64,000 bases of DNA from a virus (taxonomy: Duplodnaviria > Caudoviricetes), in the IMG/VR virus record IMGVR_UViG_3300032219_002522, positions 51,840 through 115,839 of that record; one strand, given 5' to 3'. The notes beneath the pieces were generated by a model. The model did not search any database. It was given only the letters and a program-made list of their open reading frames with translations, and was not told the DNA's origin. This document shows positions 1 to 48,793 of this stretch, piece by piece. The number at the start of each line of letters is the position of its first letter. Position 1 is the first letter of the stretch. A program made the translations under genes and the position numbers.

Positions 1-1035
1 CTTTCTTTATTTGACAACGAAATCTATGAAGCAGCTCCGAAAGGAAACACTGTACAAGGTGGATTATTTGATGTTAACGATAAGAACGTTTATAATGCAG
101 TTAAAAACGTAAAAACTGCTGTTATCCAAGGTGCTCAATACACTTTCTTAACAATAGGTCAAGGTATTAAAGCTTATGCTGATGCACAAGTTAAAGCTGC
201 AAAAGCTACCGGACAAGCTTTATTAAATTTAGCAAAATTTACTGGTAAAGTTGTTATATTTACTGCTGCTGGACTTTATGTAGTAACTGAAGCAGTTGCT
301 ACTGGATTAATTTCTCTAGCAACATCTATATTTGGATATGCAAAAAAAGGAGCTATTGCAATTGGTAGTACTCTTGTTACTGCATTAAAAAATGCTAACG
401 ATTACTTTAAAAAATTAGGCAAAGCAGTATTTAATACTATTAAAAATGATGCTTTAGCAGTTGCTAAAGTTTTTATGACAGGTTTATATAAAGTTGCTAA
501 TTTAGCTTCTCAAGCTGCTCAAGCAGTTGCATCTCTAACCGTTGCAGCATATAAGATAGCTAAAACAGCATTTAAATCTATTACTAACTTTGCAGCAGAG
601 TGTATATACGGAGCAGCTAAAGCAGCTAAGACTGTTGCTATTAAAATAGGAAAAGCGGTTGGTGATTTTTATAATGCTTCTGTAAGTGTATTTAAATCTG
701 CTAAGGATGCTATTGTAAAAACTATAAAAACTGGATTTAACGCAGTAGCAAATACTGTTAAAGCTGGTGTGCAAAAAACAGTTAAGGTTGCTGCTAAAAT
801 AAAAACGGGAGTTGGAAATGCTCTTAAGGCCGCACAGAATAAAATCGTTAATACCGGAAAAGAAATACTTTCAGTTGGTAGCGCTATATTTAGGGGTCTT
901 TGGGATCACGAGATTTACCAAGGAACTGACGAAGATATTTTTGAATCCTATGTTATTGTTGAGGGACAAAGATACTACGTGCCAGTTGATTCATACGATG
1001 ATTACGATCTAGATATTTTCGGATCACAGTATTAA
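1..1035 (+). CDS. Ala/Lys/Val-rich amphipathic helical protein, 5'-truncated by the window edge
   Basis: Frame 1 is open from base 1 (LSLFDNEIYEAAPKG...) and continues into track ORF 475..1035; the sequence is repetitive and helical in character. Confidence 0.75.
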   Translation, partial: LSLFDNEIYEAAPKGNTVQGGLFDVNDKNVYNAVKNVKTAVIQGAQYTFLTIGQGIKAYADAQVKAAKATGQALLNLAKFTGKVVIFTAAGLYVVTEAVATGLISLATSIFGYAKKGAIAIGSTLVTALKNANDYFKKLGKAVFNTIKNDALAVAKVFMTGLYKVANLASQAAQAVASLTVAAYKIAKTAFKSITNFAAECIYGAAKAAKTVAIKIGKAVGDFYNASVSVFKSAKDAIVKTIKTGFNAVANTVKAGVQKTVKVAAKIKTGVGNALKAAQNKIVNTGKEILSVGSAIFRGLWDHEIYQGTDEDIFESYVIVEGQRYYVPVDSYDDYDLDIFGSQY

Positions 1036-1513
1036 TAGAAACAAAACCTAAAAACATACCTATTAAATGACCCCCGTGGGATATTCCATCGGGGTCATTT
1101 AGTGTAACGACCTCTCCTATCAATATAATAGCCAAAATTGGTATAAGGAATTTATTTGATAATAGTAATCTTGTTAAAAGAAAATACACCAATCCAGATA
1201 TACCTATAGAAATTTGAACTCCGAAAAAAGTAAGTATAAAAGTAAAGGTCTGAACGACTATAGTTATTAATACCATCTGCTTTATATCATATTTGTTACC
1301 ACTATGAATAAGTAACAAAAATATTGCTATTATATTAAATAGAAAATGATCTAAAGATTGGTGAATAAATCCACTAATAAATGGTAAGGATATAGCTAAA
1401 TCAGCATTTCCCCCAAGTATAAGCATCATAATTAATCCTAGCGGGTATGCTAATACGCATACTCCTAATACCTTTAATGTTTCTATAGCAGATCTTTTTA
1501 AATTTTCTTTCAT
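953..1513 (-). CDS. Rhomboid-family intramembrane serine protease
   Basis: Multiple TM segments; HQSLDHFLFN (HxxxxHxxxN), GISG (GxSG catalytic Ser) and SHGGHLIG (catalytic His) motifs. Confidence 0.85.
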   Translation of the reverse strand: MKENLKRSAIETLKVLGVCVLAYPLGLIMMLILGGNADLAISLPFISGFIHQSLDHFLFNIIAIFLLLIHSGNKYDIKQMVLITIVVQTFTFILTFFGVQISIGISGLVYFLLTRLLLSNKFLIPILAIILIGEVVTLNDPDGISHGGHLIGMFLGFVSINTVIRKYLDRNHRMNQLARSIFVPQQ

Positions 1514-1599
1514 TTTTTTGTTTTGTAATACAATAGTAGAAAACCCAAAGAAATATAAAAAAAGATTCTAAATCATTTTTTATATTAAATAAAAAGGTC

Positions 1600-1635
1600 T
1601 ATATTTGTGAAACAAAACAAAAGGAACGATATATA
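1600..1635 (+). promoter_or_regulatory. Dual promoter of tRNA cluster 1: Bacteroidota-type TAnnTTTG (1600-1607) and putative late GATATATA (1628-1635)
   Basis: TATATTTGTGAAACAA...GATATATA; the same arrangement recurs at 7282-7317. Confidence 0.65.
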
Positions 1636-1643
1636 ACAGATAT

Positions 1644-1718
1644 ATGAAAAACCTAAACAACATATTACCTTTAATATTAAGACCGTCGATAAGACGATCT
1701 CTAAAGGTCCTGTGTTAG
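1644..1718 (+). CDS. Leader peptide 1 of putative tRNA-cluster attenuator (MKNLNNILPLILRPSIRRSLKVLC, 24 aa)
   Basis: ATG 1644 to TAG 1718; run of ATA/TTA/CCN/AGA/TCN codons; 3' end overlaps the antiterminator arm. Confidence 0.75.
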   Translation: MKNLNNILPLILRPSIRRSLKVLC

Positions 1719-1773
1719 TTTTCAATATATACTAAACTAAAAAACCGGGACCTTTAAAAGCCCCGGTTTTTTT
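1702..1773 (+). terminator. Attenuator 1: intrinsic terminator (1739-1773) with alternative antiterminator (1702-1712/1746-1756 and 1715-1721/1734-1740)
   Basis: AAAAAACCGGG...CCCGGTTTTTTT stem and U-tract; TAAAGGTCCTG is complementary to CGGGACCTTTA. Confidence 0.8.
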
Positions 1774-1775
1774 AT

Positions 1776-1791
1776 GGTCTTTGAAATATTG
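1776..1791 (+). promoter_or_regulatory. boxA-like antitermination element
   Basis: GGTCTTTGAAATATTG, matching GTTCTTTGACATATTG at 7498; resembles rrn boxA (E. coli TGCTCTTTAACA). Confidence 0.55.
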
Positions 1792-1803
1792 AATTATTAA
1801 ATT

Positions 1804-1890
1804 AGAGAGTTGCCAGAGTCAGGCTTAATGGATCAGTCTTGAAAACTGACGTAGTGAAAGCTACCAGGGGTTCGAATCCCTCACTCTCTG
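1804..1890 (+). tRNA. tRNA-Ser(TGA)
   Basis: AGAGAGT/ACTCTCT acceptor, TCAGT-CT TGA AA-ACTGA anticodon arm, long variable arm, GGTTCGAATCC. Confidence 0.93.
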
Positions 1891-1895
1891 CTCAT

Positions 1896-1967
1896 GGGTC
1901 TATAGTTAAAGGGATATAACCCTAGCCTTCTAAGCTTGTATTCCTGGTTCGAGTCCAGGTGGACCTA
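1896..1967 (+). tRNA. tRNA-Arg(TCT)
   Basis: GGGTCTA/TGGACCT acceptor, CT TCT AA loop, CCTGG-TTCGAGT-CCAGG. Confidence 0.9.
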
Positions 1968-2134
1968 CACAAAGCCCTCTGCCTAGCGCTGGGTATGGAT
2001 CGAAGATAGAATAGGCCTCTACACCGTAGACAGGTAGGATACCTCGGTATTCTTTAATGATATGCACACTTATTCTCTAAATCGTGGGTTAGCACAGTTT
2101 GTATGTTCTGGGGATATTTAAAGACATACAATTT

Positions 2135-2207
2135 CGGGATGTAGATCAGTTGGTAGATCGCCTGGTTTGGGGCCAGAAGGCCCTAGGTTCGAGTCCTAGT
2201 ATTCCGA
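2135..2207 (+). tRNA. tRNA-Pro(TGG)
   Basis: CGGGATG/TATTCCG acceptor, CTGG-TT TGG GG-CCAG, CTAGG-TTCGAGT-CCTAG. Confidence 0.9.
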
Positions 2208-2214
2208 CAGCCAC

Positions 2215-2288
2215 AGAGGCGTAGCTCAATTGGTTAGAGCACATGCCTTATACGCATGCGGTCACGAGTTCGACTCTCGTCGTCTCTA
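2215..2288 (+). tRNA. tRNA-Ile(TAT)
   Basis: AGAGGCG/CGTCTCT acceptor, CATGC-CT TAT AC-GCATG, ACGAG-TTCGACT-CTCGT. Confidence 0.9.
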
Positions 2289-2291
2289 CTT

Positions 2292-2365
2292 GGTCCCTTA
2301 GCTCAGTAGGTTAGAGCAACTGACTCATAATCAGTAGGTCCACGGTTCGAGCCCGTGAGGGACCA
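2292..2365 (+). tRNA. tRNA(CAT), most likely Ile2 (lysidine type) rather than Met
   Basis: GGTCCCT/AGGGACC acceptor with C4-G69 and C5-G68 (TilS determinants); overall similar to E. coli ileX (GGCCCCTTAGCTCAG...GACTCATAATC). Confidence 0.8.
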
Positions 2366-2380
2366 CAAAATTAATAATCT

Positions 2381-2461
2381 GCCTGGGTGGTGAAATTGGT
2401 AGACACGTTCGGCTTAAGATCGAATGCGAAATGCGTGAGGGTTCGAGTCCCTCCTCGGGTA
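2381..2461 (+). tRNA. tRNA-Leu(TAA)
   Basis: GCCTGGG/CTCGGGT acceptor, TTCGG-CT TAA GA-TCGAA, variable arm, GAGGG-TTCGAGT-CCCTC. Confidence 0.9.
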
Positions 2462-2466
2462 CATAT

Positions 2467-2569
2467 ATAAGAGTGGCGGAAGCGAGATCATTTATGATCC
2501 GATGGAGAGACGCTAGGGTGTCATGCCAGAGAACGAAAATTCATGTTGGTTCAAGTCCAACCTCTTGTA
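2467..2569 (+). ncRNA. Aberrant tRNA-like RNA (intact acceptor and T arms, expanded D loop, degenerate anticodon arm)
   Basis: ATAAGAG/CTCTTGT acceptor; GTTGG-TTCAAGT-CCAAC; GCGGAA...AGACGC D arm containing a GATCAT-TT-ATGATC insert. Confidence 0.6.
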
Positions 2570-2582
2570 CTTTTTAGATTTT

Positions 2583-3134
2583 TTACTTAACCTCTTTAAT
2601 TCTGAAGTATCCTCGGTGATCGGTTTTACCTGGTTCTACACCATCTTCGAATTTACAATATCCAGTAGAATTAAAGAAGTTCCATTCTTCTCTTCTACCT
2701 TTACTAAGTTTATCCTGTGGCATTAAAGATCTATTATATTCTTGATTTTCTTGGTTAATTCTCTTATACATTCCATTATAAAATGTAGATGTGCTAAGTA
2801 AATTCGTAGCTTCTTCCATTAATCTTCGATTGATATTATAGTCAAATATAGCCTCATGAATAGAAATCTCTGAAATGTCTCTTCTATAGCTAATCCATTG
2901 TGATATAACTCCACCATAATTATATGGTGTATAACCTAAATCCCCTACGTAAAAAAGATTAAAATATGGAGAATTCTCTTTGCTGTGATCGAACAACCTT
3001 ATGTTAGTATTAAAATGTGGTACAGTTCCACTGAATTCTTTCATTCTATTATAGAATTCAGGCAGTATCTCTAATGTTATTGATGTCGGATTATTATTTG
3101 CATCAAATCCCTCAAATAGCTTAATGTGTTTCAT
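2583..3134 (-). CDS. Hypothetical protein with MKHIKLFE N-terminal motif (putative internal virion protein)
   Basis: ORF track; GATATATA on the minus strand at 3140-3147. Confidence 0.75.
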   Translation of the reverse strand: MKHIKLFEGFDANNNPTSITLEILPEFYNRMKEFSGTVPHFNTNIRLFDHSKENSPYFNLFYVGDLGYTPYNYGGVISQWISYRRDISEISIHEAIFDYNINRRLMEEATNLLSTSTFYNGMYKRINQENQEYNRSLMPQDKLSKGRREEWNFFNSTGYCKFEDGVEPGKTDHRGYFRIKEVK

Positions 3135-3174
3135 ATGATTATATATCTAAATATCTAAATAAATGTGATATATA

Positions 3175-4794
3175 ATGTATATGAAAAAGTACATAAAACT
3201 ATTCGAGGAGTTTGTTTTTGAATACCTATCAAAAGCTTCTAAAATAATTAATAATATTAGCGAATTACCTAAAGTTGGAGAACCTGTAGTCAAACAGGAT
3301 TTTAGCGAGGACGGTATAGTAGCTATTGATTGGAAGAACTTAGTTTTTATTAGATCCTCAGATGAGCTTCCCACTCTTCGAGGTAAAGATATGCTACTTC
3401 ACACAGGAAAAGCTCTAAAGAGCGTAGGTTTCAATGACTCTTTCGAGAAGTACCTCAAGAAGAAGTACAATAATGACATCAACGACCCTGAAAATACATG
3501 GATAAAGGAAGAACCTCACTACAAGGACTTTGAAACTTTTCGAAAATGGATGATAGATGCTCATTCCACCAGATGGACAAAACACTTTACGTTGAACCAC
3601 GTAGTTTCTTCTCACTCTGGTGGAAACTGGACAGGTAACAAGTACATCTACTTGATGCCCGGAGAATCTATGATCAAGACTAACGGAAAACCTGCTAGTC
3701 TCTTTGCTATAGACACTTACTATGACAAGAGCTTGGTAGTGTCTGACGGTACAGTAGTTCTTTACTTACCTGAAGCAGATGAAGAAGTTAGGGAGTTTGT
3801 GGCTAAAACAGCTGAGAACAGAAACCAAATTTATTTCTTGAAGATAAAAGGAGATATTGTCGATTACGAGCTGAAAGATGCCAACGATGCGATAGAAGCT
3901 ATGGGATACACTACGTTTAGTGGGGGCTCTCACTACTCAACCGAGTATAATCTTGACAGTGAGATGAGAGATTTACAAGACAGGGAAGACATCAGAAAAA
4001 GTGGACTACACTGGGGTTCTAAATGGTACAATCTTGAGAAGGGACAAACACACTGGGAAGATTTTATGAGTCTAGGGAAGATAAAAAGATCCCAGTATAA
4101 AAACTTGAACATCAAGAAAGAAGAACAGGAGTACCAAGAACATAGAGGATTCAGCAAAGATTACTTGAAAGAGTGCGTGAAATCGTTATCAAAATCTCAT
4201 TCGGAAGATCCTTTCGACAAAGAAGTTGTGCGCAACTACTTACGATACATGACGATGGTTTGCAAGATCATAGCTACTCCTAAATTTTCAATGAAACAGT
4301 TCGATGAGACTGCAGGTTTCAGTTGGAATAATTCGGATGAACACGCGTTAAGTATGGATTCATGGGATCCGAATAAATTAGAATCTGAGTTAGATAGAGA
4401 TTTTGAGGCTCACCCTGAATACACAAGACCTGAACGATACGGTTACGGAACTCCAGCACAAAAAGAAGTTATGGCTAAAAGGAGCAATGAATACATAGGG
4501 GAGTATTACTATTTCAATAAGTACCTACTGTTCGACATAAAGCAAGCGTTTAAAACTTCATGGATAGGAAAGTTCCTCCAGGATAACCGTAAAGAACTAG
4601 AAATTTTACAGGATATTATTATTAAAAAGAAAGAAAGCCCAGAATGGGAAGAAGCTGCCGGTAAGATAGCTGATAGATTAGTAGACAGTCCAGTATTTCC
4701 TGATCTTTTAAACATTGGATCATATCTAATAGCAATGAATAGAGGAGCTAAAAAGTACGGATATAAGGACGTTTATGACATGCTTGAATTATAA
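3175..4794 (+). CDS. Hypothetical protein with MKKYIKLFEEF N-terminal motif
   Basis: 539-aa ORF; GATATATA at 3167-3174. Confidence 0.8.
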   Translation: MYMKKYIKLFEEFVFEYLSKASKIINNISELPKVGEPVVKQDFSEDGIVAIDWKNLVFIRSSDELPTLRGKDMLLHTGKALKSVGFNDSFEKYLKKKYNNDINDPENTWIKEEPHYKDFETFRKWMIDAHSTRWTKHFTLNHVVSSHSGGNWTGNKYIYLMPGESMIKTNGKPASLFAIDTYYDKSLVVSDGTVVLYLPEADEEVREFVAKTAENRNQIYFLKIKGDIVDYELKDANDAIEAMGYTTFSGGSHYSTEYNLDSEMRDLQDREDIRKSGLHWGSKWYNLEKGQTHWEDFMSLGKIKRSQYKNLNIKKEEQEYQEHRGFSKDYLKECVKSLSKSHSEDPFDKEVVRNYLRYMTMVCKIIATPKFSMKQFDETAGFSWNNSDEHALSMDSWDPNKLESELDRDFEAHPEYTRPERYGYGTPAQKEVMAKRSNEYIGEYYYFNKYLLFDIKQAFKTSWIGKFLQDNRKELEILQDIIIKKKESPEWEEAAGKIADRLVDSPVFPDLLNIGSYLIAMNRGAKKYGYKDVYDMLEL

Positions 4795-4804
4795 TTAGAA
4801 TAAT

Positions 4805-5227
4805 ATGATTAAAAAACTATCATATTTCGATATATCCGGAATAATTACAAAGCAATATCCTGAATATACTCTAATAATAGGTAAAAAATCTGAGGATATA
4901 TTTAATTATTTTGCCGTAGATGAGTTACATGGACTATATAGAGATAAATGTCATGATAATCCAAATAACGCTTATATAGCTGGTTTATGTAACGTTTATC
5001 CTAATGATCATAATAAATTCTTTATCTTTCTAAATTCGATTAGATTAGATAACGGATACAAGGACGTCCTTTTAATAATGCACGAGTGTATGCACATGTC
5101 TCTAGAGATTCATGGTACAGATTTGACATATAGAGATGGAAATGACATAGAAGAAATTGCTATAACTTGGGCAGAGAAGAATTCTGAATCAATTTACGAA
5201 TTCATTATGTCCAAAGGAATATTATAA
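4805..5227 (+). CDS. Small putative HExxH zinc metallopeptidase-like protein
   Basis: IMHECMH followed by downstream EE. Confidence 0.55.
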   Translation: MIKKLSYFDISGIITKQYPEYTLIIGKKSEDIFNYFAVDELHGLYRDKCHDNPNNAYIAGLCNVYPNDHNKFFIFLNSIRLDNGYKDVLLIMHECMHMSLEIHGTDLTYRDGNDIEEIAITWAEKNSESIYEFIMSKGIL

Positions 5228-5249
5228 AAAATAGGATATATAATGGGTC

Positions 5250-5621
5250 ATGCACGATCACATTAAAATATCCGGACTTGGTATAGAAATATACAAAAAT
5301 GATATACCAGGGGTAAGATGGTATAAAGCTCAGTCTTTTATTAATGATCTTGGAAATGGATGGAGATTGCCTTCATTAAAAGAACTTGCTTTAATAAAAA
5401 CACTAAGAGATCTTGGTGGCATAGGTAGATTTCCTACCGAATATTCAGATTTTTCTGATTCGTATTATTGGAGTAATGAGGAAGGCGAGGTTACTAGTAT
5501 AAGAACACAAGGGAAAGATGGGAAAAGTAACTATGCTTACTTTTTTGATATGTCGGAGGGAACTTCTTCACATAATAAAAAATCATACGATCTTAGGGTT
5601 AGGTTTGTCAGAGATATATAG
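5250..5621 (+). CDS. DUF1566/Lcl-C-like (C-type-lectin-like fold) protein
   Basis: GWRLPSLKEL, YYWS and C-terminal VRFVR motifs. Confidence 0.7.
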   Translation: MHDHIKISGLGIEIYKNDIPGVRWYKAQSFINDLGNGWRLPSLKELALIKTLRDLGGIGRFPTEYSDFSDSYYWSNEEGEVTSIRTQGKDGKSNYAYFFDMSEGTSSHNKKSYDLRVRFVRDI

Positions 5622-5624
5622 AAT

Positions 5625-6476
5625 ATGCCAACAACAAGACCCTTTGCATATAATCCAACACAATCAACAATTTCAGGAACTACAAATGTAGGTACATTAT
5701 GCGTAGGTGTATCTGCTTTAAACTATGGTGCAAATCCAGGAGGACTAACTTGGTGGATGGGTCCGGACGAGGATAATTCTTATGTAATATCTAAAGATGT
5801 ACCAACTTCAAACTTTCCTACCCCAGTAGGAAATGTAGGCACTGTACAATTTTGGAGATGCTCTAATACAGATGAAGCTTTTAGAAGTACAGTACAAATA
5901 ATAAGCGGTATCACTCAAGCTTCCGCTTTAGCAGCTAGTGATTGGTTAACAACAAATGGATATTGGACTAATCGGAATCCATATCTTGCAGGTTTATATA
6001 AAACAACTTACTCCGGATATTTTGCTGATAATGTTAGTTTCTTTGCAACTGCTACTCCTGCATCAGTAGGGGGAAATCCAGCTACATCAGTACAAACAAC
6101 ATCTATATTTGAACCCGCTCAAAATGATGGCGAGAATTTTAGTTGTCAATGGCTAGGTTATTTTAAACCAACAACTTCTGAAACATATACATTCTACACT
6201 TCAAGTGACGACGCTTCGTATGTGTGGATAGGTTCAAATGCACAGACAGGGTTTACAACTACAAATTCAACAGTTAATAACGGGGGATTACATGGGACAC
6301 AAGAACGTTCAGGTTCTATTGCATTAACTGCTGGTACATATTATCAAATAAGAATACAATTTGGTGAACTAAGTGGAGGTGACGTAATGACTTTTAGTTA
6401 TTCAACCCCTACTATTACAAAAACTACCAATGTAACAGGACTAGTATTTTATAATCCGTCCACTAATGGATTCTAA
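5625..6476 (+). CDS. PA14-domain carbohydrate-binding protein (possible virion adhesin)
   Basis: FSCQWLGYFKP...YTFYTSSDDASYVWI...GTYYQIRIQFGE, a PA14/GLEYA signature. Confidence 0.8.
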   Translation: MPTTRPFAYNPTQSTISGTTNVGTLCVGVSALNYGANPGGLTWWMGPDEDNSYVISKDVPTSNFPTPVGNVGTVQFWRCSNTDEAFRSTVQIISGITQASALAASDWLTTNGYWTNRNPYLAGLYKTTYSGYFADNVSFFATATPASVGGNPATSVQTTSIFEPAQNDGENFSCQWLGYFKPTTSETYTFYTSSDDASYVWIGSNAQTGFTTTNSTVNNGGLHGTQERSGSIALTAGTYYQIRIQFGELSGGDVMTFSYSTPTITKTTNVTGLVFYNPSTNGF

Positions 6477-6511
6477 TTCAATAATTAGATATATACAATA
6501 AAATCAAAGAA

Positions 6512-6790
6512 ATGAAGCATATTAAAAATTATCAGGCTAAAAATTCTAAAATTAACGAGGGATTTTGGGATTCTCTTTTTGGTAGACCCACTGTTGATGA
6601 TGCTGCTCACGATCAAATGAGAGGTCAAGGATGGAGTCACAGAGGTAAAGATGAAGAAAACTACATCATGTTCCAAGGGCAAAAGTTCTATCCCGATCAA
6701 ATCCAATATGATGATGTTTATTCAACTAAACAAATACCAAGAGTTGAAGGGGGTATGTTAATCGTAGCTAATCCAGCTTGGAATTTGTAA
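6512..6790 (+). CDS. Hypothetical protein (MKHIKNY...INEG N-terminus)
   Basis: ORF track; GATATATA at 6488-6495. Confidence 0.7.
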   Translation: MKHIKNYQAKNSKINEGFWDSLFGRPTVDDAAHDQMRGQGWSHRGKDEENYIMFQGQKFYPDQIQYDDVYSTKQIPRVEGGMLIVANPAWNL

Positions 6791-6862
6791 AAAAAATCAG
6801 AAATCTTTTTTTTCTTATTATTTTGATCTCTATATTTGGATCCTAATTAAAAAACTTTTACA

Positions 6863-7240
6863 ATGAAATTAAACAAAATGAGCAGGGTTACTATGAAGGT
6901 AGCTCACGAGAATCCAGATGCTAGCGTGAACTTCACAGCGGTAGGGATAGGAAAAGATCAAAGAGAAGCAGCTATCTTCGCATTAGGATCCTTCTTAAAT
7001 GTTATGAATGGTATTAGTGAGGAAGGAATTTCGGATTACAATGAAGCTTTAGAAATGGTAAATGGTCAATATTCGGAAGCTGAAATAGTATCGTTTATGG
7101 AAAAACAATTAGAAAGCAATTCAGGTTCTTTCTTTAATGCTTACGAATCTACTGATGTTGATTATTCATGGGATGAAGTAGAAGGTGAAGAAGCTGGAGG
7201 ATTAATCCAAGAAATGGAAATAATCGAAGAGGAATATTAA
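6863..7240 (+). CDS. Acidic hypothetical protein, probably early
   Basis: ORF track; TATATTTG host-type promoter at 6831-6838. Confidence 0.7.
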   Translation: MKLNKMSRVTMKVAHENPDASVNFTAVGIGKDQREAAIFALGSFLNVMNGISEEGISDYNEALEMVNGQYSEAEIVSFMEKQLESNSGSFFNAYESTDVDYSWDEVEGEEAGGLIQEMEIIEEEY

Positions 7241-7281
7241 AAAATATCAAAGAAACATTTTTTTATTCAATAAAAAGATTG

Positions 7282-7317
7282 TACATTTGTGAAACAATAT
7301 CAGAAAAGAGATATATA
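7282..7317 (+). promoter_or_regulatory. Dual promoter of tRNA cluster 2: TAnnTTTG (7282-7289) and GATATATA (7310-7317)
   Basis: TACATTTGTGAAACAA...GATATATA, parallel to 1600-1635. Confidence 0.65.
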
Positions 7318-7328
7318 AACAAGAAACA

Positions 7329-7436
7329 ATGAAAAACTGTAGTAAACATAACATCATTCGCATGAACAGTCAGATTAATGGCTGCTATCAAACGGTGGCG
7401 TTTTGGGCTAAGGGAAAAGATCCCGATCGAAGCTAA
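7329..7436 (+). CDS. Leader peptide 2 of putative tRNA-cluster attenuator (MKNCSKHNIIRMNSQINGCYQTVAFWAKGKDPDRS, 35 aa)
   Basis: ATG 7329 to TAA 7436; contains codons for all 7 downstream tRNAs; starts MKN like leader 1. Confidence 0.75.
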   Translation: MKNCSKHNIIRMNSQINGCYQTVAFWAKGKDPDRS

Positions 7437-7497
7437 TACAAGAAATCATATTTAGATATTTTGAAAAGGCTTTGATTAACTTCAAAGCCTTTTTTTT
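7425..7497 (+). terminator. Attenuator 2: intrinsic terminator (7464-7497) with alternative antiterminator (7425-7434/7468-7477)
   Basis: AAAAGGCTTTGA-TTAACT-TCAAAGCCTTTTTTTT; GATCGAAGCT pairs with GGCTTTGATT (3 G-U pairs). Confidence 0.75.
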
Positions 7498-7513
7498 GTT
7501 CTTTGACATATTG
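7498..7513 (+). promoter_or_regulatory. boxA-like antitermination element
   Basis: GTTCTTTGACATATTG between the terminator and the first tRNA. Confidence 0.6.
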
Positions 7514-7519
7514 GAAATT

Positions 7520-7601
7520 GGGAGCGGTAGCAAAGTTGGTCAATGCACCGGACTGAAAATCCGGCCATGTGGGTTCGAAGGTTCGAGTCCTTCTACTTCC
7601 A
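7520..7601 (+). tRNA. tRNA-Phe(GAA), atypical (extended variable region)
   Basis: CCGGA-CT GAA AA-TCCGG; GAAGG-TTCGAGT-CCTTC; 12-nt variable region. Confidence 0.8.
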
Positions 7602-7606
7602 CAAAA

Positions 7607-7679
7607 GGTCCCGTAGTTCAATGGATTAGAATGGAACACTACGGATGTTCTGATCCTGGTTCGAATCCAGGCGGGGTCT
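7607..7679 (+). tRNA. tRNA-Arg(ACG)
   Basis: GAACA-CT ACG GA-TGTTC; CCTGG-TTCGAAT-CCAGG. Confidence 0.9.
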
Positions 7680-7690
7680 CAAACAAATAA

Positions 7691-7764
7691 GGTCGCGTGG
7701 CCGAGTGGTTAGGCGCTAGTCTGCAAAACTAGTAACACTGGTTCAATTCCAGTCACGACCTCCA
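7691..7764 (+). tRNA. tRNA-Cys(GCA)
   Basis: CTAGT-CT GCA AA-ACTAG; U73 discriminator and encoded CCA. Confidence 0.92.
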
Positions 7765-7785
7765 AAAAATAAAATAATAAAGCCT

Positions 7786-7917
7786 ATGGATGAAAAAGTG
7801 GTAGTAAAAGGAAGTTTCCCCTCTAGTAAAGAAAACTTAAAAAGAGAAACATTAAAATTTAAACACGCCGAAAGATTAATAAAAAGAATTAAAAGGCTAA
7901 TTAACAAAGGAAAGTAA
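7786..7917 (+). CDS. Small basic 43-aa ORF inside tRNA cluster 2 (MDEKVVVKGSFPSSKENLKRETLKFKHAERLIKRIKRLINKGK)
   Basis: ATG in an A-rich context; fills the whole spacer; stop overlaps the tRNA-Ser 5' end. Confidence 0.5.
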   Translation: MDEKVVVKGSFPSSKENLKRETLKFKHAERLIKRIKRLINKGK

Positions 7918-7994
7918 TCTCAGATGGTGACGGGGCTCGCCTGCTAAGCGAAGCGTACCTTAATTGGTATTTGGTTCGATTCCAATTCTTTCCG
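7909..7994 (+). tRNA. tRNA-Ser(GCT)
   Basis: GGAAAG/CTTTCC acceptor, TCGC-CT GCT AA-GCGA, long variable arm, G73. Confidence 0.82.
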
Positions 7995-8000
7995 CAATAT

Positions 8001-8074
8001 TGACATATAGCTCAGTTGGTTAGAGCGTTGATCTGATACGTCAAAGGCCGAAGGTTCGAATCCTTCTATGTCAC
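8001..8074 (+). tRNA. tRNA-Ile(GAT)
   Basis: TGACATA/TATGTCA acceptor, TTGAT-CT GAT AC-GTCAA. Confidence 0.9.
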
Positions 8075-8079
8075 CCCAC

Positions 8080-8152
8080 GCCTTTGTAGCTCAGCTGGTA
8101 GAGCGCTTCACTTGTAATGAAGTTGTCGCAGGTTCGATTCCTGTCAAAGGCT
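8080..8152 (+). tRNA. tRNA-Thr(TGT)
   Basis: GCCTTTG/CAAAGGC acceptor, CTTCA-CT TGT AA-TGAAG. Confidence 0.92.
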
Positions 8153-8157
8153 CATAT

Positions 8158-8230
8158 TTTCCCCTCGTCTAATTGGCGGGACATGTGGTTTTGGACCAGA
8201 AGAGTCCAGGTTCGAATCCTTGGAGGAAAA
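8158..8230 (+). tRNA. tRNA-Gln(TTG)
   Basis: TT TTG GA loop and GGTTCGAATCC; several stem mismatches. Confidence 0.75.
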
Positions 8231-8272
8231 CAAAAAGATAAATACAATGTCCAGTATGTAAAATTTAAGATT

Positions 8273-8764
8273 ATGAAAGTTCTAGTATTAAATAACGACT
8301 TTACGCCAGTGAGTGTTACCAATATAGCTCGGGGATTCAAACTTGTATATAAAGGTAAAGCCGAAGTATTAGAACATGACGAATCTAATCCTATTGTTAC
8401 AGATCAACAAGTTTATAAAAGACCATCAGTTATAAGGCTTTTAAAGTATGTTGTTCTTCCATTTAAGAAGCTAAAACCCACTAGGGAGAACATATTTAAG
8501 AGAGACGAATTAAAGTGCTTATATTGTGATGCTACAAAGCAGCTTACAATAGATCACGTAATCCCTAGATCTAGAGGAGGTATTAATACATGGGAGAATC
8601 TAGCAACTTGCTGTTCTAGATGCAACGGTAAGAAAGGAGATAGAACTCCAGAAGAAGCAGGAATGAAGATGCGTCACAAACCATTTAAACCTGGATATGG
8701 ATATTTTATCCGGAATTTTTCTAAAGGAATGGATGTTTGGACATCATATCTTCCAGAATATTAA
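8273..8764 (+). CDS. HNH endonuclease (McrA-like)
   Basis: VLVLN...CLYC...TIDHVIPRSRGG...WENLATCCSRCNGKKG; start moved to ATG 8273 because the track start (8117) lies inside tRNAs. Confidence 0.9.
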   Translation: MKVLVLNNDFTPVSVTNIARGFKLVYKGKAEVLEHDESNPIVTDQQVYKRPSVIRLLKYVVLPFKKLKPTRENIFKRDELKCLYCDATKQLTIDHVIPRSRGGINTWENLATCCSRCNGKKGDRTPEEAGMKMRHKPFKPGYGYFIRNFSKGMDVWTSYLPEY

Positions 8765-19849: not shown

Positions 19850-20155
19850 ATGAGTATTTTTTTTGATAGTGAGGGTCTTAATTTAGGTAGAATGATTTCT
19901 CATTCTAAATCAGGATATATGGATAAATTTCCAGGTAACGAAGTTTATTTTAATTCAAACATTTTTGTTTTAGGAGAGGGTAAAATTTGGTATGGCGATA
20001 TCGACGTAACAAAAGAAAGAGACAAATTAGAAAATATAGCAAAAGAAATTGGTAAAGATCTATACATCCTAAGAGAGATGGAAGGAAGATTCGGAAATGA
20101 AAATCTTGAAGATTCTGAAATTATCAAGAGATGTATATGTAAAATAAGTAAATAA
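19850..20155 (+). CDS. Hypothetical protein
   Basis: ORF track. Confidence 0.7.
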   Translation: MSIFFDSEGLNLGRMISHSKSGYMDKFPGNEVYFNSNIFVLGEGKIWYGDIDVTKERDKLENIAKEIGKDLYILREMEGRFGNENLEDSEIIKRCICKISK

Positions 20156-23397: not shown

Positions 23398-24509
23398 TGG
23401 AGAAATTTCCCAATATTAAAAGAATAATATTTATTACTGATACACATCTAGGGGTTAGAAATAATTCTAATGATTGGATTGAGATACATGAAAATTATTT
23501 TAAGAACTGGTTTATACCTTTATGCAAGAAGATTTATAAACCAGGGGATTGTCTTGTACACCTAGGAGATGTATATGATAGCAGACAATCATTAAATCTT
23601 AGAGTTCTTAATTTAGGAATAGAAATATTCGAGGAACTATCCGGTATTTTTAAGGATGGTATTTTTATAATATGTGGTAACCACGACATATACGGAAAAA
23701 ATACCAACGAGGTAAACTCACTAAAATCTTTAAAATGGATTCCTAGAATAAAAATATACGAAGAGCCAGAATCTATAATAATGGGAGACAGAAAAGTTTT
23801 TCTTATGCCATGGAGAAAAGACCATGAGGCAGAAAGAGAGACTTTAAATAAAGTAAGCGAGGCTCACAATTATATGTTTTGCCATACAGACTTAAAGGGT
23901 TTAATGTTTAATAAGTTTGTTAGGATAGACGAAGGATTAGAATATACAGACATAGATAAATTCGAAAGGGTATATTCTGGTCATATACACTACTCACAAA
24001 CTTTTGGGAAAATGAGAATGTTAGGATCACCGTATCAACTTACAAGATCTGATACTGACAACCCAAAAGGAATAACTGTTTTAGATCTAGAGACTGGATA
24101 TGAGGATTACTACGATAATAACTACTCCCCTAAGTTTATAAGAATGACCTTCGATAAGGTTTTAAATTCTAATCCTGCAGAATTAAACCCTATATTCAAA
24201 AACAATTTTATAGATATACTTGTAGATCCGGAATTAGCTGTAAAAGCTCCATTAGGCCTGTTAACCGAGTATGTAAATCCTCCTCTTAAAATATCATTTA
24301 CTCCTATAACAAACCCAGACCAGGAAGTTATAGATGAAGGATTCCATGACCTAGAGGGAAAGAACTTTTCTATATTAGATCTTACCAGACTTTATTTAGA
24401 AAAGTGCAATTATGAGGACGAGAAAAAAACTAAAATATACAACGCAATAGAAAAACTGTTGAATAAAATATCTGTACAAGTTAAGGAAGATGAAGATCAA
24501 GAAGATTGA
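23397..24509 (+). CDS. Mre11/SbcD-like nuclease (T4 gp47-like)
   Basis: DTHLG, HLGDVYD, GNHD, SGHIH, GSPYQ. Confidence 0.92.
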   Translation: MEKFPNIKRIIFITDTHLGVRNNSNDWIEIHENYFKNWFIPLCKKIYKPGDCLVHLGDVYDSRQSLNLRVLNLGIEIFEELSGIFKDGIFIICGNHDIYGKNTNEVNSLKSLKWIPRIKIYEEPESIIMGDRKVFLMPWRKDHEAERETLNKVSEAHNYMFCHTDLKGLMFNKFVRIDEGLEYTDIDKFERVYSGHIHYSQTFGKMRMLGSPYQLTRSDTDNPKGITVLDLETGYEDYYDNNYSPKFIRMTFDKVLNSNPAELNPIFKNNFIDILVDPELAVKAPLGLLTEYVNPPLKISFTPITNPDQEVIDEGFHDLEGKNFSILDLTRLYLEKCNYEDEKKTKIYNAIEKLLNKISVQVKEDEDQED

Positions 24510-30750: not shown

Positions 30751-32559
30751 ATGAGTTTTGTAAAGGAAGATAAGTCAAGTAATTTCTGGTCGAGCGCTAA
30801 AGTCGAAAGATTAGTATACGACGCAGAAGAAAATGGTATAGACTATAAAGATGTAGATAATCCTTTTCATGAAAATGATCCAGAACTAAGAAAAGGTAAT
30901 ATACTTTTTGAATATACCGAATGGGAATTAGAAGAGATGAGAAAATGTGCGGAAGACGTGGTTTATTTTGCTAATAAATATTGCCACGTTATGACTGATG
31001 AGGGTATTAGACAAATATTGTTAAGAGATTATCAAATACAGATTCTAAATCAATATCAGCACAATAGAAAAAATGTATTCGTATCCCCTAGACAATCAGG
31101 TAAAACTATTACATCATCTATATTCCTATTATGGTATTTACTATTTAATTTCGAGAAAAATGCCATGATTATGGCAAACATCGGGGATACTGCAGCGGAA
31201 TTAATGGATAAGATAAAGGTTATTATGAAGGGATTACCCTTTTTTTTAAAGCCCGGTCTAGTCGTTTATAACGTAATGACTATGAAGTTTGATAACGGAT
31301 GTAGAATAATGGCTAAGACGACAACTAAAACATCGTCTATCGGTTATACAATTCACATGTTATACATGGATGAGTTTGCACATATTAATCCAAACTTTAT
31401 TAACCAATTCTTTAAATCCGTTTATCCTACAATATCCTCTTCACAAATTGCCAGAGTTATTATAACTTCCACTCCTAATGGAATGAATAAATTCTGGGAA
31501 ATTTACAAAGGAGCAGTTGAAGGAGAGAATGAATTTAATCCTATAAGGGTAGAATGGTGGCAAGTTCCTGGAAGAGATGAAGAATGGAAAAGAAAAGAGA
31601 TAGCTGCTCTAGGATCTGAAGAAGATTTTAATCAGGAGTACGGTTGTCAATTTTTATCATCATCTAGATTATTATTAGATTCCAACACTCTAAAAAGATT
31701 AAAAGGCTCGGAGGAACAATTTACATTCCGTGAATTATCGTCATTTGAAAAAAGTCCTATAGATTATTCTAATCTTCTATGGCATCCGAAATTCGATCCA
31801 ACCTCAATATTTGAAAAAGATGGACAGAAATTTTATATCTCCATAGATACTGCTAGTGGTGGGGGAGGTGACTATTCAGTTGCTAATATATTTAAGGTTG
31901 CTCCAATGCCAAGCAGTGCAATAAAAAATAAAAGATTCTTCGAAGACGAAAGTGATTTCTTCTGCTTGTTACAAGTTGGTATATTTAGATCCAATATGAT
32001 TGAAATAGATGAATTTAAAGCATTCTTAGAGATTCTTATAGTAGATGTACTTGGCGTAGACAACACAAGAATAGTTTTAGAATTAGATCATAAAGGTGAA
32101 ATGCTAATGGATAAATTGCTGGATTCCGAGGATTTCTTTGATGAAATGTTTGTTTACACTAAACATTCAGAAGCAAGTACTAAATTAAAGCCAGGTGTTA
32201 AGCTAACAGTAAAAAATAAAGAGAAATTCTGCTATGATTTAAAAATAAACACAAGATCCTACAGAATAATACCATCAAACAAGAATGGAATACACGAATT
32301 AGCCAATTTTGGTATAAATCCTAATGGAAGTTTTTCTAGTCAAATAGGTAAAGATGATGAAGCTATGACCCTTGTTAACATAAATTGTGTGTTCGACGGA
32401 GGAGACTTTCAAGAAACAGTAATGGATCTTTATGACATCATACCAGAAAAGTTTAGAAAAATGATAGAAGAAAGGCTTTCAGAAAACACAGAAGCTGCTC
32501 AAAATAAAACTAGCGATCTATCAAACTATACTTTCTTAAACGGACTCCTTGATTCTTAG
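30751..32559 (+). CDS. terL: Terminase large subunit (T4 gp17-like)
   Basis: LRDYQ, PRQSGKT, YMDEFAH, ITSTPNG, FNQEYGCQF, DYS, KDD. Confidence 0.95.
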   Translation: MSFVKEDKSSNFWSSAKVERLVYDAEENGIDYKDVDNPFHENDPELRKGNILFEYTEWELEEMRKCAEDVVYFANKYCHVMTDEGIRQILLRDYQIQILNQYQHNRKNVFVSPRQSGKTITSSIFLLWYLLFNFEKNAMIMANIGDTAAELMDKIKVIMKGLPFFLKPGLVVYNVMTMKFDNGCRIMAKTTTKTSSIGYTIHMLYMDEFAHINPNFINQFFKSVYPTISSSQIARVIITSTPNGMNKFWEIYKGAVEGENEFNPIRVEWWQVPGRDEEWKRKEIAALGSEEDFNQEYGCQFLSSSRLLLDSNTLKRLKGSEEQFTFRELSSFEKSPIDYSNLLWHPKFDPTSIFEKDGQKFYISIDTASGGGGDYSVANIFKVAPMPSSAIKNKRFFEDESDFFCLLQVGIFRSNMIEIDEFKAFLEILIVDVLGVDNTRIVLELDHKGEMLMDKLLDSEDFFDEMFVYTKHSEASTKLKPGVKLTVKNKEKFCYDLKINTRSYRIIPSNKNGIHELANFGINPNGSFSSQIGKDDEAMTLVNINCVFDGGDFQETVMDLYDIIPEKFRKMIEERLSENTEAAQNKTSDLSNYTFLNGLLDS

Positions 32560-42025: not shown

Positions 42026-42487
42026 ATGAATTATCCTTTTAAAAGAGTTATAACGGACATTAGGAACTATTTCTTTTTAAGAAGAACTATAAAGAAAAAT
42101 ACAGGATCTATTGAATGGGAAAGATTCAAGCTTAGAGTAGATTGGATAGGAAGAATATACACAGTAGTTAATCTTCCGCCAGAGGTTATTTACTCCCCAG
42201 ATTCACCGGAAGAGATTAGACCTGCATACATTTTAGAGGAATCAAGGCCTCTTAATGAGTATTTAACTTCCTTAAATTTACAGGAGGTAATAATGCCTAA
42301 GATTTCTCCTATTCCTAATTCTGTTTCTTATCTAATAGTCTACAGCCCTTATTTTCAGAGATTGTCTATAAGATGGATAATCTACAGAATTATACTTATT
42401 CTTATCTTAATCTGGCTCCAATATAAATTTGGATTAGTAAGTTGGATTTTAGGAGGGTTTAAATATTTATGGAATGTTATCTTCTGA
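42026..42487 (+). CDS. Hypothetical protein with C-terminal TM segment
   Basis: LRVDWIGRIYTVVNLP; hydrophobic C-terminus. Confidence 0.7.
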   Translation: MNYPFKRVITDIRNYFFLRRTIKKNTGSIEWERFKLRVDWIGRIYTVVNLPPEVIYSPDSPEEIRPAYILEESRPLNEYLTSLNLQEVIMPKISPIPNSVSYLIVYSPYFQRLSIRWIIYRIILILILIWLQYKFGLVSWILGGFKYLWNVIF

Positions 42488-46223: not shown

Positions 46224-48542
46224 ATGGAAAAAAATATTAATCCGGAGATCAACAGATTAAATATGGAGACTTCTAAGAATGCCGCAGACTCCTTAAGAGA
46301 ATGGGCTGGACTAGGATCAGAAAAGAAACCTGTTGCTTCTTCTTTCCTAAACGGTTCTACCGCTCAAATGTTAAAAGAGTCACAAATGCCAGACGTTTCT
46401 ACAACCCCTAAAAATAATGTTGTTTTTAGTTTTGGACTAGTTAATACAGTTTCTGCATTAAAAAATTCATCCTTAGGTGATTTACCTGCTGGTAAGATAC
46501 TTCTTGAAAAATACGAACATATACTATTAGGAAAAGGCGTATCAGAAGCTTTCGTTTTTGAAGGACTCTTAAATGATCTTCAATCTTTCTCTTGGGAGAA
46601 TTCAGTATCTGAAGCATTAGAAAATCTAAATAGAACTTTCGAAAACAGAAGAAGAGAAATAGAAGTACTTAAGGCTTACGAATCTATAAAAAATTCTCCA
46701 GGAAGAGAGCTTTTCTCTGATGCTACAGCTCAGATGAAAAACTGGTTACTCGCTGAAAATAAATCCAGCGATACACTTATCCACGGACTTAAAAGCTTTG
46801 GATTTAATCCATTGGTTAGAAATCTAGTTAGCTTCCTATCTCTTTATGAAAACGAGAACTCTGGTAAATTCCATGTAGGATTTGATAATAATGTTTGTAA
46901 GATAGACAGCCTTTATTCACCTATTACAGTTAATGAGAGCGAGACATTATTCTATTCATCTGGTAAATTCTTGAAGATGGATCACGAGTCGGGTGTTATT
47001 CAAGAATGTAACATGGACGAAGTACCAGAAGAACTTGCAGATAAAGCTCAAATAGTTACCGATAGAGACGTAAAAATTGATAACAATAAGATTTCATTAA
47101 ATATCGGAAATAACAAGGTAGAGATCGTATTTACAAACGAATCTAAGGAAGTTTATTTCGATGGTAAAATAATAAACGAAGAAGATCTTCCACTTGCAGT
47201 TAGTGTTTCAACTAACAATCTTTTAGAAAGTTCAAACCACAAAATAAACAAAGCGGTTTTCGTAGCTAAAAATGCAGAAGATATCGTTGATATCGATTTT
47301 GGTAAAAAAATCAAATCTAAAGTATACGAAAACGTAGAGGCTAATATATTTAAGACTGAAGCAGGAATTTATGTTCAAACTGTTAATCCTGCTATGAGAT
47401 TAAATAAAATCTATGAAGCTAATGCAACACAAGCAATTAACATAATCAAAGATTTTATTAAGTACGATATCTCTGAATCCCTAACAGAATTCTTAGAAGG
47501 CGAACAAGCTTTCTTAAGCGTTATGAAAAATGATAAGAATGAGATCATTAACAATATCGGAGTATTGGAGAATCAGCTTATGAAATTAGACAGAGCTAAG
47601 AAAGATAATCCTTTACTTGTTAATTCTAACGAAATTATTACTTTAGAAGAAAGCATCCATGACGAAATCTCATCTCTTCAAGACAGATGGAATCAAATTA
47701 ATCTTGAAATTTCTAGATTCGAAAGCAAGGCTAAAGAAGTTCCTTCAATTAACGAAGATCTTGGATATCCTATCGATACTGAGGTTAGAATTAAAAGAAA
47801 TGGAAATAGAGGTAGAGTTATAGGAGTAGATGGAAGCTCTAAAACTTATACTATACTTTTCAAAGAAGGTAAAACAGGAGAATATTTCTTCTCTGATGTT
47901 GAAGATTTAGAAGATGAAATCGATCGTTACGATATTAAAGCTCCAGATCTTGATTTAGAATATACTAACGAGTCAAATCAAAACTTTGCAAATGCACCTG
48001 GTAACAGAGGAGGATCACACAAAGATTCTAGAATCGAAAGTCTTTCTAAAAAACATATGGCTCAGGCTCCTGATAAAAAAACAGGATCTTCTTCTAAGTT
48101 TATAAACAATGAAAAAGGAACTATGGCAGGTTTACCTAAGAGTGGTAAATCAGCACCTTTAACAGGAAGAGGTGTTAAATCTAGTTCTGCTAATATGGCA
48201 GATCTTCCTAATAAAGGAAAAGGAGGAAGCGGAAAAAAATTCATCGACAGTCTAGAAAATTTAGATCTTGCTAAAGCACCAAGTGCTTCTTTAAAAGGAT
48301 CTGCTAAGTTTATTCAGGATTTAAAAAATATGAATTTAGCTACTCTTAAAGAGAGTCAAAAAAATTCTCATGTCGAGAAAGCTCCTAAAGGTAAATCAGA
48401 AAAGTCTAAGAAATTTATGGAAGACGAAGACGATTTTAACTTTGCAGATGCTCAAGGAAACAGCAAAAAGAATGGTAAAAGATTCGCTGAAAATGATAAA
48501 GTAGCAAATTTTGCTTCTGCTCCTAGAACAAAAAAAAAGTAA
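46224..48542 (+). CDS. Large late protein, possibly prohead core/internal protein
   Basis: 772 aa; many (L/I)xE motifs; repeated (F/M/L)AxAP units; ends at A_AAA_AAG TAA. Confidence 0.75.
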   Translation: MEKNINPEINRLNMETSKNAADSLREWAGLGSEKKPVASSFLNGSTAQMLKESQMPDVSTTPKNNVVFSFGLVNTVSALKNSSLGDLPAGKILLEKYEHILLGKGVSEAFVFEGLLNDLQSFSWENSVSEALENLNRTFENRRREIEVLKAYESIKNSPGRELFSDATAQMKNWLLAENKSSDTLIHGLKSFGFNPLVRNLVSFLSLYENENSGKFHVGFDNNVCKIDSLYSPITVNESETLFYSSGKFLKMDHESGVIQECNMDEVPEELADKAQIVTDRDVKIDNNKISLNIGNNKVEIVFTNESKEVYFDGKIINEEDLPLAVSVSTNNLLESSNHKINKAVFVAKNAEDIVDIDFGKKIKSKVYENVEANIFKTEAGIYVQTVNPAMRLNKIYEANATQAINIIKDFIKYDISESLTEFLEGEQAFLSVMKNDKNEIINNIGVLENQLMKLDRAKKDNPLLVNSNEIITLEESIHDEISSLQDRWNQINLEISRFESKAKEVPSINEDLGYPIDTEVRIKRNGNRGRVIGVDGSSKTYTILFKEGKTGEYFFSDVEDLEDEIDRYDIKAPDLDLEYTNESNQNFANAPGNRGGSHKDSRIESLSKKHMAQAPDKKTGSSSKFINNEKGTMAGLPKSGKSAPLTGRGVKSSSANMADLPNKGKGGSGKKFIDSLENLDLAKAPSASLKGSAKFIQDLKNMNLATLKESQKNSHVEKAPKGKSEKSKKFMEDEDDFNFADAQGNSKKNGKRFAENDKVANFASAPRTKKK

Positions 48543-48793
48543 ATAAATTACAGATAAATGAGTCTGTTGACAAAGACCCAGACGAGGGCGTTGGCAACAG
48601 ACTCAATTTTGTTTTAGACGATTTGAAAAATTGTTTAGAAAAAATAAAAGAATTAGAAACTTCTAGCGAAGAAAATGGTAAGATAGGTATAGAGACAATT
48701 AGAAATTCGAGGAAAAATTTGGAAGAATTAAGGGTTAATTTAGAAAAACAGATAGAAAAACTCCAAAATAATATTCCAAACCAAGAAGAATGA
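48527..48793 (+). CDS. ATG-less -1 frame coiled-coil extension of 46224..48542 (KVNKLQINESVDKDPDEG...QNNIPNQEE)
   Basis: Open from after TAG 48524-26 to TGA 48791-93, which overlaps the gp55 ATG; not in the ORF track. Confidence 0.7.
   Translation, partial: NKKKVNKLQINESVDKDPDEGVGNRLNFVLDDLKNCLEKIKELETSSEENGKIGIETIRNSRKNLEELRVNLEKQIEKLQNNIPNQEE

Follow-up and report, generated by a model that had tools for sequence, protein, structure and literature searches.

A ribosome-mediated leader-peptide transcription attenuator most probably gates a cluster of six tRNA genes (array 1) in a large tailed phage, a reading to which we assign a probability of roughly 80%. Judged by sequence, the underlying idea that the leader senses codons is strongly supported by 11 homologous leaders and by eight further units whose leaders match the tRNA arrays behind them. 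In what follows, we describe the unit, its codons and its alternative RNA structures, compare it with its homologues and with units of other arrays, and weigh the explanations that compete with attenuation by a translating ribosome.

The gap with the probable attenuator and its surroundings

The window that we analysed is a 64,000-nt stretch, bases 51,840 to 115,839 of a 115,839-bp IMG/VR virus record with a G+C content of 33%. CheckV estimates the completeness of this record at ~42%, so that the phage from which it derives is a large one. Searches by megablast, tblastn and blastn found no cultured close phage, the matches being of tRNA-to-tRNA similarity only, and Pfam annotation of ten neighbouring ORFs, which carry rhomboid-like, HNH, PA14/GLEYA and Lcl_C domains, gave no functional link. 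The probable attenuator occupies a 290-nt gap with the rhomboid-like gene on one side and tRNA array 1 on the other. Its elements and flanks, in window coordinates, are:

953–1513, minus strand: gene for a rhomboid-like membrane protein (Pfam), divergent, one flank of the attenuator gap
1570–1615, plus strand: conserved upstream block, a probable promoter, with a TAnnTTTG-type box at 1600–1607 and the 12-nt TTTGTGAAACAA at 1604–1615
1628–1636, plus strand: GATATATAA motif, 8 nt before the leader start codon
1644–1718, plus strand: leader ORF of 24 codons and a TAG stop (1716–1718)
1655–1673, plus strand: segment 1 (core 1667–1673), predicted anti-antiterminator strand, present in the minimum free energy (MFE) structure of the free leader
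1662–1700, plus strand: sensor run, codons 7–19, peptide ILPLILRPSIRRS
1680–1700, plus strand: internal hairpin within the sensor run, stem 1684–1687/1693–1696, present in the MFE structure
1702–1721, plus strand: segment 2, predicted antiterminator 5′ strand (1702–1712 with the optional 1715–1721), spanning the last codons and the stop
1734–1756, plus strand: segment 3, predicted antiterminator 3′ strand (1746–1756 with the optional 1734–1740)
1739–1773, plus strand: predicted intrinsic terminator, stem 1739–1749/1762–1772, with a seven-T run at 1767–1773
1776–1786, plus strand: boxA-like motif, past the terminator and ahead of the tRNA genes
1804–2462, plus strand: tRNA array 1, putatively regulated, with Ser-TGA, Arg-TCT, Pro-TGG, Ile-TAT, CAT and Leu-TAA (ARAGORN; Rfam tRNA model)

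The original prediction had described the ORF, the sensor codons, the helices and the terminator, and all of its coordinates and letters were correct. The CAT tRNA of array 1 is a tRNA for Met or Ile2.

Array 1 has two further features of its own. A 166-nt spacer (1969–2134, plus strand) separates tRNA-Arg from tRNA-Pro; it is kept in several homologous arrays (e.g., L022 and L314) and absent from L109, L318 and L319, in which the two tRNAs lie 5 nt apart. The spacer looks like an insertion and has no match in Rfam. The ~110 nt past tRNA-Leu (2463–2577, plus strand) have complementary ends and a T-arm-like GGTTCAAGTCCAACC at the end of the stretch, and may represent a tRNA that has degenerated or been interrupted; there is no call at this place by ARAGORN or Rfam.

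A leader filled with the codons of its own array

The sensor run is made up almost entirely of codons that array 1 can read. The original prediction had placed 12 of its 13 codons in codon boxes served by the array, and this count stands with the tRNAs called by ARAGORN; under strict wobble rules it is 10 of 13, since CCT and TCT need four-way reading by U34 and CGA is unserved by array 1. The tRNA that reads this CGA (codon 18) belongs to the other array. To place these counts against ordinary usage, we took the 126 long ORFs that make up 86% of the contig. The strict served set accounts for 18.0% of their codons, which gives a binomial P of 5.8e-6 for 10 of 13, and none of the 31,425 windows of 13 codons in these ORFs reaches 10 served codons, the maximum being 8. 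All Ile codons of leader 1 are ATA, and two of its three Arg codons are AGA.

The comparison gave no support for describing these codons as rare. ATA, TTA and AGA, at 48, 33 and 29 per 1000, are among the commonest codons of the phage, the usage in question being that of the phage itself.

From its sequence, we infer that the leader ORF is translated. The GATATATAA motif, a spacer and an ATG precede the ORF, so that the leader shares the start context of the phage's ordinary genes. The motif has 17 occurrences in the 115.8-kb contig, mostly 5–12 nt upstream of starts and including both leaders (in the window, it lies at 1628, 3167, 5235, 7310, 26158 and 50434), and it or similar motifs also precede the leaders of a second phage, G001, which is described below. 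It is a candidate for a phage-specific promoter or start-site signal.

Competing RNA structures

Segment 2 has two possible partners. Looking back, 1702–1708 pairs with 1667–1673, which falls inside codons 8–10, and the helix is extended by 1655–1664 with 1711–1721 into a hairpin (1655–1722) of −18.3 kcal/mol; this third pairing was missing from the original prediction. Looking forward, 1702–1712 pairs with 1746–1756 through 10 Watson–Crick pairs and one G–U pair, in an antiterminator hairpin (1700–1758) of −19.1 kcal/mol. Segment 3 overlaps the 5′ arm and the loop of the terminator, which itself has an energy of −13.5 to −14.0 kcal/mol and ends 31 nt from the first tRNA. The three structures are of comparable energy. 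Because segment 2 can pair back with segment 1 or forward with the terminator 5′ arm, the leader has the four-segment layout of a trp-type attenuator. The MFE structure of the free leader holds both the terminator and the 1:2 hairpin.

The 11-bp antiterminator helix proposed at the outset is well borne out: the duplex between the leader and the terminator 5′ arm has an energy of −19.4 kcal/mol, where shuffled sequences average −6.7 kcal/mol and 0 of 1000 are as good. The companion 7-bp upper helix fares less evenly. TTAGTTT (1715–1721) is complementary to AAACTAA (1734–1740), as had been claimed, but the helix is no more stable than chance would allow, shuffled A/U-rich spacers being at least as good in a fraction of 0.10–0.40; the site occurs in three different sequence versions, all of them able to pair. 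The internal hairpin within the sensor run could, on the folding model, be a pause hairpin. It is invariant across the homologues, but the pattern used in the homologue search itself demanded it.

Ribosome position and the predicted switch

We scanned the effect of ribosome position with a model in which only RNA 3′ of the stalled ribosome is allowed to fold; a 30-nt footprint mask that let pairs span the ribosome was sterically unrealistic and was replaced by this 3′-only folding. With the ribosome's 3′ reach set at 12 nt past the A site, the antiterminator is dominant when the A site stands at about codons 5–16, and the terminator is dominant from about codon 17 through the stop codon. Setting the reach anywhere from 9 to 16 nt shifts the boundary by one or two codons. 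The predicted antitermination window coincides with the cognate codon run, with codons 17–19, two of them served, falling outside it. With no ribosome on the leader, the 1:2 hairpin and the terminator form, the probability of the terminator being about 0.9. The scan thus reproduces in silico what had been predicted of the unit, namely that a stalled ribosome gives read-through and a ribosome at the stop codon gives termination, and it predicts that the terminator would replace the antiterminator when the ribosome moves beyond about codon 16–17.

Homologues keep the codons and the RNA strand

A search with a motif inside the leader found ten further IMG/VR contigs, giving an alignment (A3) of 11 sequences. 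The same six tRNAs stand behind the unit in eight of the ten; the array of L014 is without tRNA-Ser, and that of L066 starts about 660 nt further downstream. In all 11 sequences, 12 of the 13 codons at positions 7–19 fall in served boxes, though 7 of the 13 positions vary, the alternatives being ATA, TTA, a TCN codon or CCC, every one of them in a served box. The changes include Leu–Ser and Ile–Ser exchanges, which as sequence changes would be senseless for a peptide, yet leave the codons readable by the array. Codons 2–5, by comparison, change without such restraint, among codons that the array does not serve.

A 1-nt deletion in five of the 11 homologues makes the peptide end at codon 19, with the stop codon on segment 2, and the nucleotide sequence of segment 2 is unchanged in all five. 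That the C-terminus of the peptide is frameshifted but segment 2 is kept indicates that selection maintains the run of codons and the RNA strand rather than the peptide. The leader ATG is kept in 10 of the 11. The exception, the leader of L014 (3507–3642, minus strand), has ATA in its place; this unit may be in decay, and it would offer a naturally mutated counterpart to the intact leaders.

Folding predicts the antiterminator hairpin for each of the 11 homologues, with energies from −12.6 to −19.9 kcal/mol. Covariation is weak in each helix, because the homologues are too alike: the 11-bp helix has one compensatory change, from an A–U to a U–A pair, and 69 of 500 shuffles do as well; the terminator, paired in 93% of cells across the homologues, has no compensatory pairs among the 11; and the 1:2 helix, whose core is paired in 81% of cells and whose outer pairs are often lost, shows no significant covariation in that core.

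The upstream block and the boxA-like site

The conserved upstream block is common to array 2 of the same phage (7286–7297) and to all 11 type-1 homologues, and the 12-mer also heads three units of G001. TAnnTTTG as such is no commoner in the window than chance predicts (79 occurrences against 78 expected), for which reason we dropped an inference about the host that had been drawn from a Bacteroidota-type −7 box.

The motif past the terminator matches 9 of the 11 positions of GYTCTTTAANA, the boxA consensus of gamma-proteobacteria (10.1101/091223), a consensus drawn from that one group of bacteria. Array 2 and most homologues match 10 of the 11 positions of this gamma-proteobacterial consensus. 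The form TCTTTGA[AC]ATA has only three occurrences in the contig, one past each of the two terminators and one elsewhere, and the boxA-like motif is absent from G001. As far as its sequence and position go, such a site past a terminator would make sense only if read-through continues into the array, and it would fit a read-through polymerase that is made processive over untranslated tRNA genes.

Matched leaders ahead of other arrays

Array 2 has a leader of 35 codons (7329–7436, ATGAAAAAC start, shared upstream block) followed by a terminator at 7463–7494. Each of the two arrays encodes part of the tRNAs for Ile, Arg and Ser, and 15 of the 16 leader codons for these amino acids fit their own array (P = 2.7e-5), a count that takes in the Ser-GCT tRNA-like gene of array 2. 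This type-II tRNA-like gene (7908–7994, plus strand; anticodon GCT, Ser) was not called by ARAGORN and reaches 38 bits, a sub-threshold score, with the Rfam tRNA-Sec model; going by its anticodon, it would read three AGT/AGC codons of leader 2. Between tRNA-Cys and this gene, array 2 also has a 43-codon lysine-rich ORF (7786–7917, plus strand). In relatives, array 2 comprises 15 tRNAs, and its leader has all 15 amino acids and is without Leu and Glu (P = 0.0024 and P = 0.003). The relatives have a third array, of Glu, Asp, Met and Leu-TAG; a leader for it was predicted ahead of inspection, and L225 (571–660) has seven consecutive Glu, Asp and Leu codons.

G001 is a different phage, of 373,759 bp with 50% G+C and 49 tRNAs, and has six leader–terminator–array units. 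Their leader ORFs, in G001 coordinates, are:

30959–31045: rich in Tyr, Asn and Gln; array of Asn, Tyr and Gln
46558–46626: rich in His and Trp; array of Trp and His
52238–52318: rich in Ile and Arg; array of Ile and Arg
213376–213468, minus strand: rich in Ala, Asp, Cys and Glu; array of Asp, Ala, Cys and Glu
294275–294355: rich in Leu and Ser; array of Ser and Leu
313444–313536: rich in Thr, Lys, Gly and Met; array of Lys, Met, Gly and Thr

Within G001, the true pairing of leaders with arrays is the best of 720 permutations. For nine units together, that is, array 1, array 2, the Glu/Asp/Leu array of the relatives and the six of G001, only 2 of 362,880 permutations match leaders to arrays as well. 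IMG/VR was also scanned with patterns of the promoter and start motifs; the matches listed were mostly chance ones, and a match was kept only where tRNAs lay downstream.

At the level of RNA, the end of the leader is complementary to the terminator 5′ arm beyond 95% of shuffles in seven of the nine units, and an obvious 1:2 helix is missing in several of the units other than that of array 1. Equilibrium folding of full leaders with a masked ribosome gives a clean switch in the array-1 unit alone. Most of the other full leaders keep the terminator at any ribosome position, so that a switch in them would have to be kinetic, and we assessed these units on the nascent transcript instead of the full-length equilibrium fold. 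Folded in this manner, all nine units keep the nascent terminator 5′ arm sequestered for as long as the ribosome has not cleared the cognate run.

No leader ORF with a terminator is recognisable upstream of two further G001 arrays (19744 and 42100) or of the single tRNAs at 48673, 297081 and 317243, so control of this kind would not extend to every tRNA of the phage. Among its tRNA genes (pieces L294–L313), we also noted two tRNAs with a CTA (amber-reading) anticodon and one tRNA called with a four-base anticodon, at 19877–19952, 42187–42258 and 212306–212380 (minus strand), as well as tRNA-like genes split by long insertions at 24041–24400, just past a promoter motif at 24041.

A model for attenuation of array 1

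The elements described above suggest a model in which the ribosome on the leader decides whether RNA polymerase reaches the tRNA genes:

(i) The conserved block that precedes 1616 would supply the transcription start, and a ribosome would set out on the 24-codon leader.

(ii) If the matching tRNAs run short, lack their amino acid or have suffered damage, decoding of ATA, TTA, CCN, AGA and TCN (codons 7 to about 16) would be slow and would park the ribosome on segment 1. Segment 2 (1702–1712) would then be free to pair with 1746–1756, and the terminator 5′ arm would be sequestered.

(iii) With the terminator blocked, RNA polymerase would pass the boxA-like site into the six tRNA genes.

(iv) When decoding is fast, the ribosome would reach the last codons or the stop and cover segment 2, in which case the terminator (1739–1773) would form and transcription would stop.

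(v) In the absence of a ribosome, segments 1 and 2 would pair with each other, and the terminator would form as well.

As the products of the array are the tRNAs that read the sensor codons, such a circuit would exert direct negative feedback on decoding capacity. That transcription terminates at 1773, which way the system responds in vivo and what physiological signal it answers to are points that we infer.

Competing explanations

The same device could report amino-acid starvation, through a lack of charging of the Ile, Leu, Pro, Arg and Ser tRNAs, in place of the supply or integrity of particular tRNA species. Decoding speed does depend on charged tRNA, and the leaders match their arrays at the level of amino acids as well as of codons. 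More tRNA, however, gives no relief of an amino-acid shortage, and codon choice tracks the isoacceptors of a leader's own array in the 15-of-16 split between arrays 1 and 2, just as leader 1 uses ATA alone for Ile and AGA for most of its Arg codons. We therefore regard starvation as an unlikely signal. An independent small gene or RNA that acts in trans, with the tRNAs expressed by constitutive leak-through or from another start, is less likely again. The promoter, the ORF and the terminator do make a complete unit, and there is precedent in other bacteria, which are reported to release attenuator RNAs and leader peptides that are able to work in trans (PMC6614838, PMC7298713). A trans-acting product would sit poorly with five of 11 homologues in which the C-terminus of the peptide has shifted frame on an unchanged RNA strand, with amino-acid swaps that are confined to array-served codons, and with nine units of unrelated peptides that share one design; it would also have to accommodate an antiterminator that overlaps the terminator and a distance from terminator to first tRNA of only 31 nt, containing the boxA-like site.

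The least probable of the explanations, in our estimate a very improbable one, is that the hairpin is a constitutive or bidirectional terminator or insulator and that the ORF and its codon content are coincidental. An A run precedes the stem as a T run follows it, and the hairpin is among the minus-strand entries of the terminator scan; it could end antisense transcripts of the minus-strand gene at 2583–3134 or dampen tRNA expression, and a 24-codon ORF is not rare in itself. Coincidence is opposed, however, by the codon statistics and the permutation tests. The minus-strand tail is not conserved, the A run before the stem being down to three A in several homologues, and the conserved complementarity of 1702–1712 to the terminator 5′ arm would be left unexplained. 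Attenuation by a ribosome that senses the supply of the array's own tRNAs remains our preferred reading.

Relation to known systems

Enterobacterial attenuators provide the closest design. thrL senses Thr and Ile, ilvL senses Ile, Leu and Val, and trpL, hisL, leuL and pheL belong to the same class. Attenuators of the thrL/ilvL type share with the phage unit a short leader that contains a run of regulatory codons, a set of hairpins (1:2, 2:3 and 3:4) that exclude one another, an intrinsic terminator ahead of the regulated genes, a decisive role for ribosome position and the sensing of several codons. They regulate biosynthetic enzymes, whereas the phage unit would regulate tRNA genes; its sensor mixes five codon families, chosen at the level of isoacceptors, into a "checklist", and its product would relieve the stall directly. 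The Rfam model Thr_leader (RF00506) scores 28 bits at 1651–1776 against a gathering threshold of 55 (E = 0.044), a resemblance of layout only, and the unit belongs by sequence to no Rfam leader family.

The pheM leader attenuator controls pheST of E. coli, an aminoacyl-tRNA synthetase operon. It is likewise a case of leader-peptide attenuation of a component of the translation apparatus through cognate amino-acid codons, and it differs in that its target is a synthetase, that it senses one amino acid and that it is cellular and not viral. T-box riboswitches bind uncharged tRNA directly via a specifier codon and need neither ribosome nor ORF; they resemble the phage unit as transcription attenuators that read the state of specific tRNAs and control translation-related genes, and a search of 1400–8400 gave no T-box match at E values up to 1. 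The boxA/Nus antitermination of rrn operons offers a further parallel, as a boxA-like motif heads an untranslated stable-RNA operon here as it does in rRNA leaders. The phage motif is unlike rrn boxA in its match of 9/11 (10/11 in homologues) and in following a regulated terminator, and is a putative NusB/NusE site.

Implications for phage tRNA genes

The tRNA genes of phages are usually viewed as fixed patches for codon usage or as spares against tRNA-cleaving defences and, to our knowledge, essentially nothing is known of the control of their expression. Full-text literature searches found no description of leader-peptide control of tRNA genes, and, as far as those searches show, trp-type attenuation would in this unit be applied to stable-RNA genes for the first time. 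If the attenuation model is true, each such unit is a self-contained homeostat for decoding capacity and a natural, modular, codon-specific sensor. The nine matched leaders in two unrelated large phages would constitute a natural library of codon-speed reporters, which makes the idea directly testable.

A more speculative extension, which we consider possible and hold only tentatively, is that these attenuators are damage sensors against host defences that cleave or deplete tRNAs, such as anticodon nucleases. Cleavage or depletion of a tRNA would then slow the ribosome on the matching leader and switch on the array of replacement tRNAs, array by array. Should that be the case, a large phage would run a set of codon-specific alarms and not the constitutive expression of its tRNAs.
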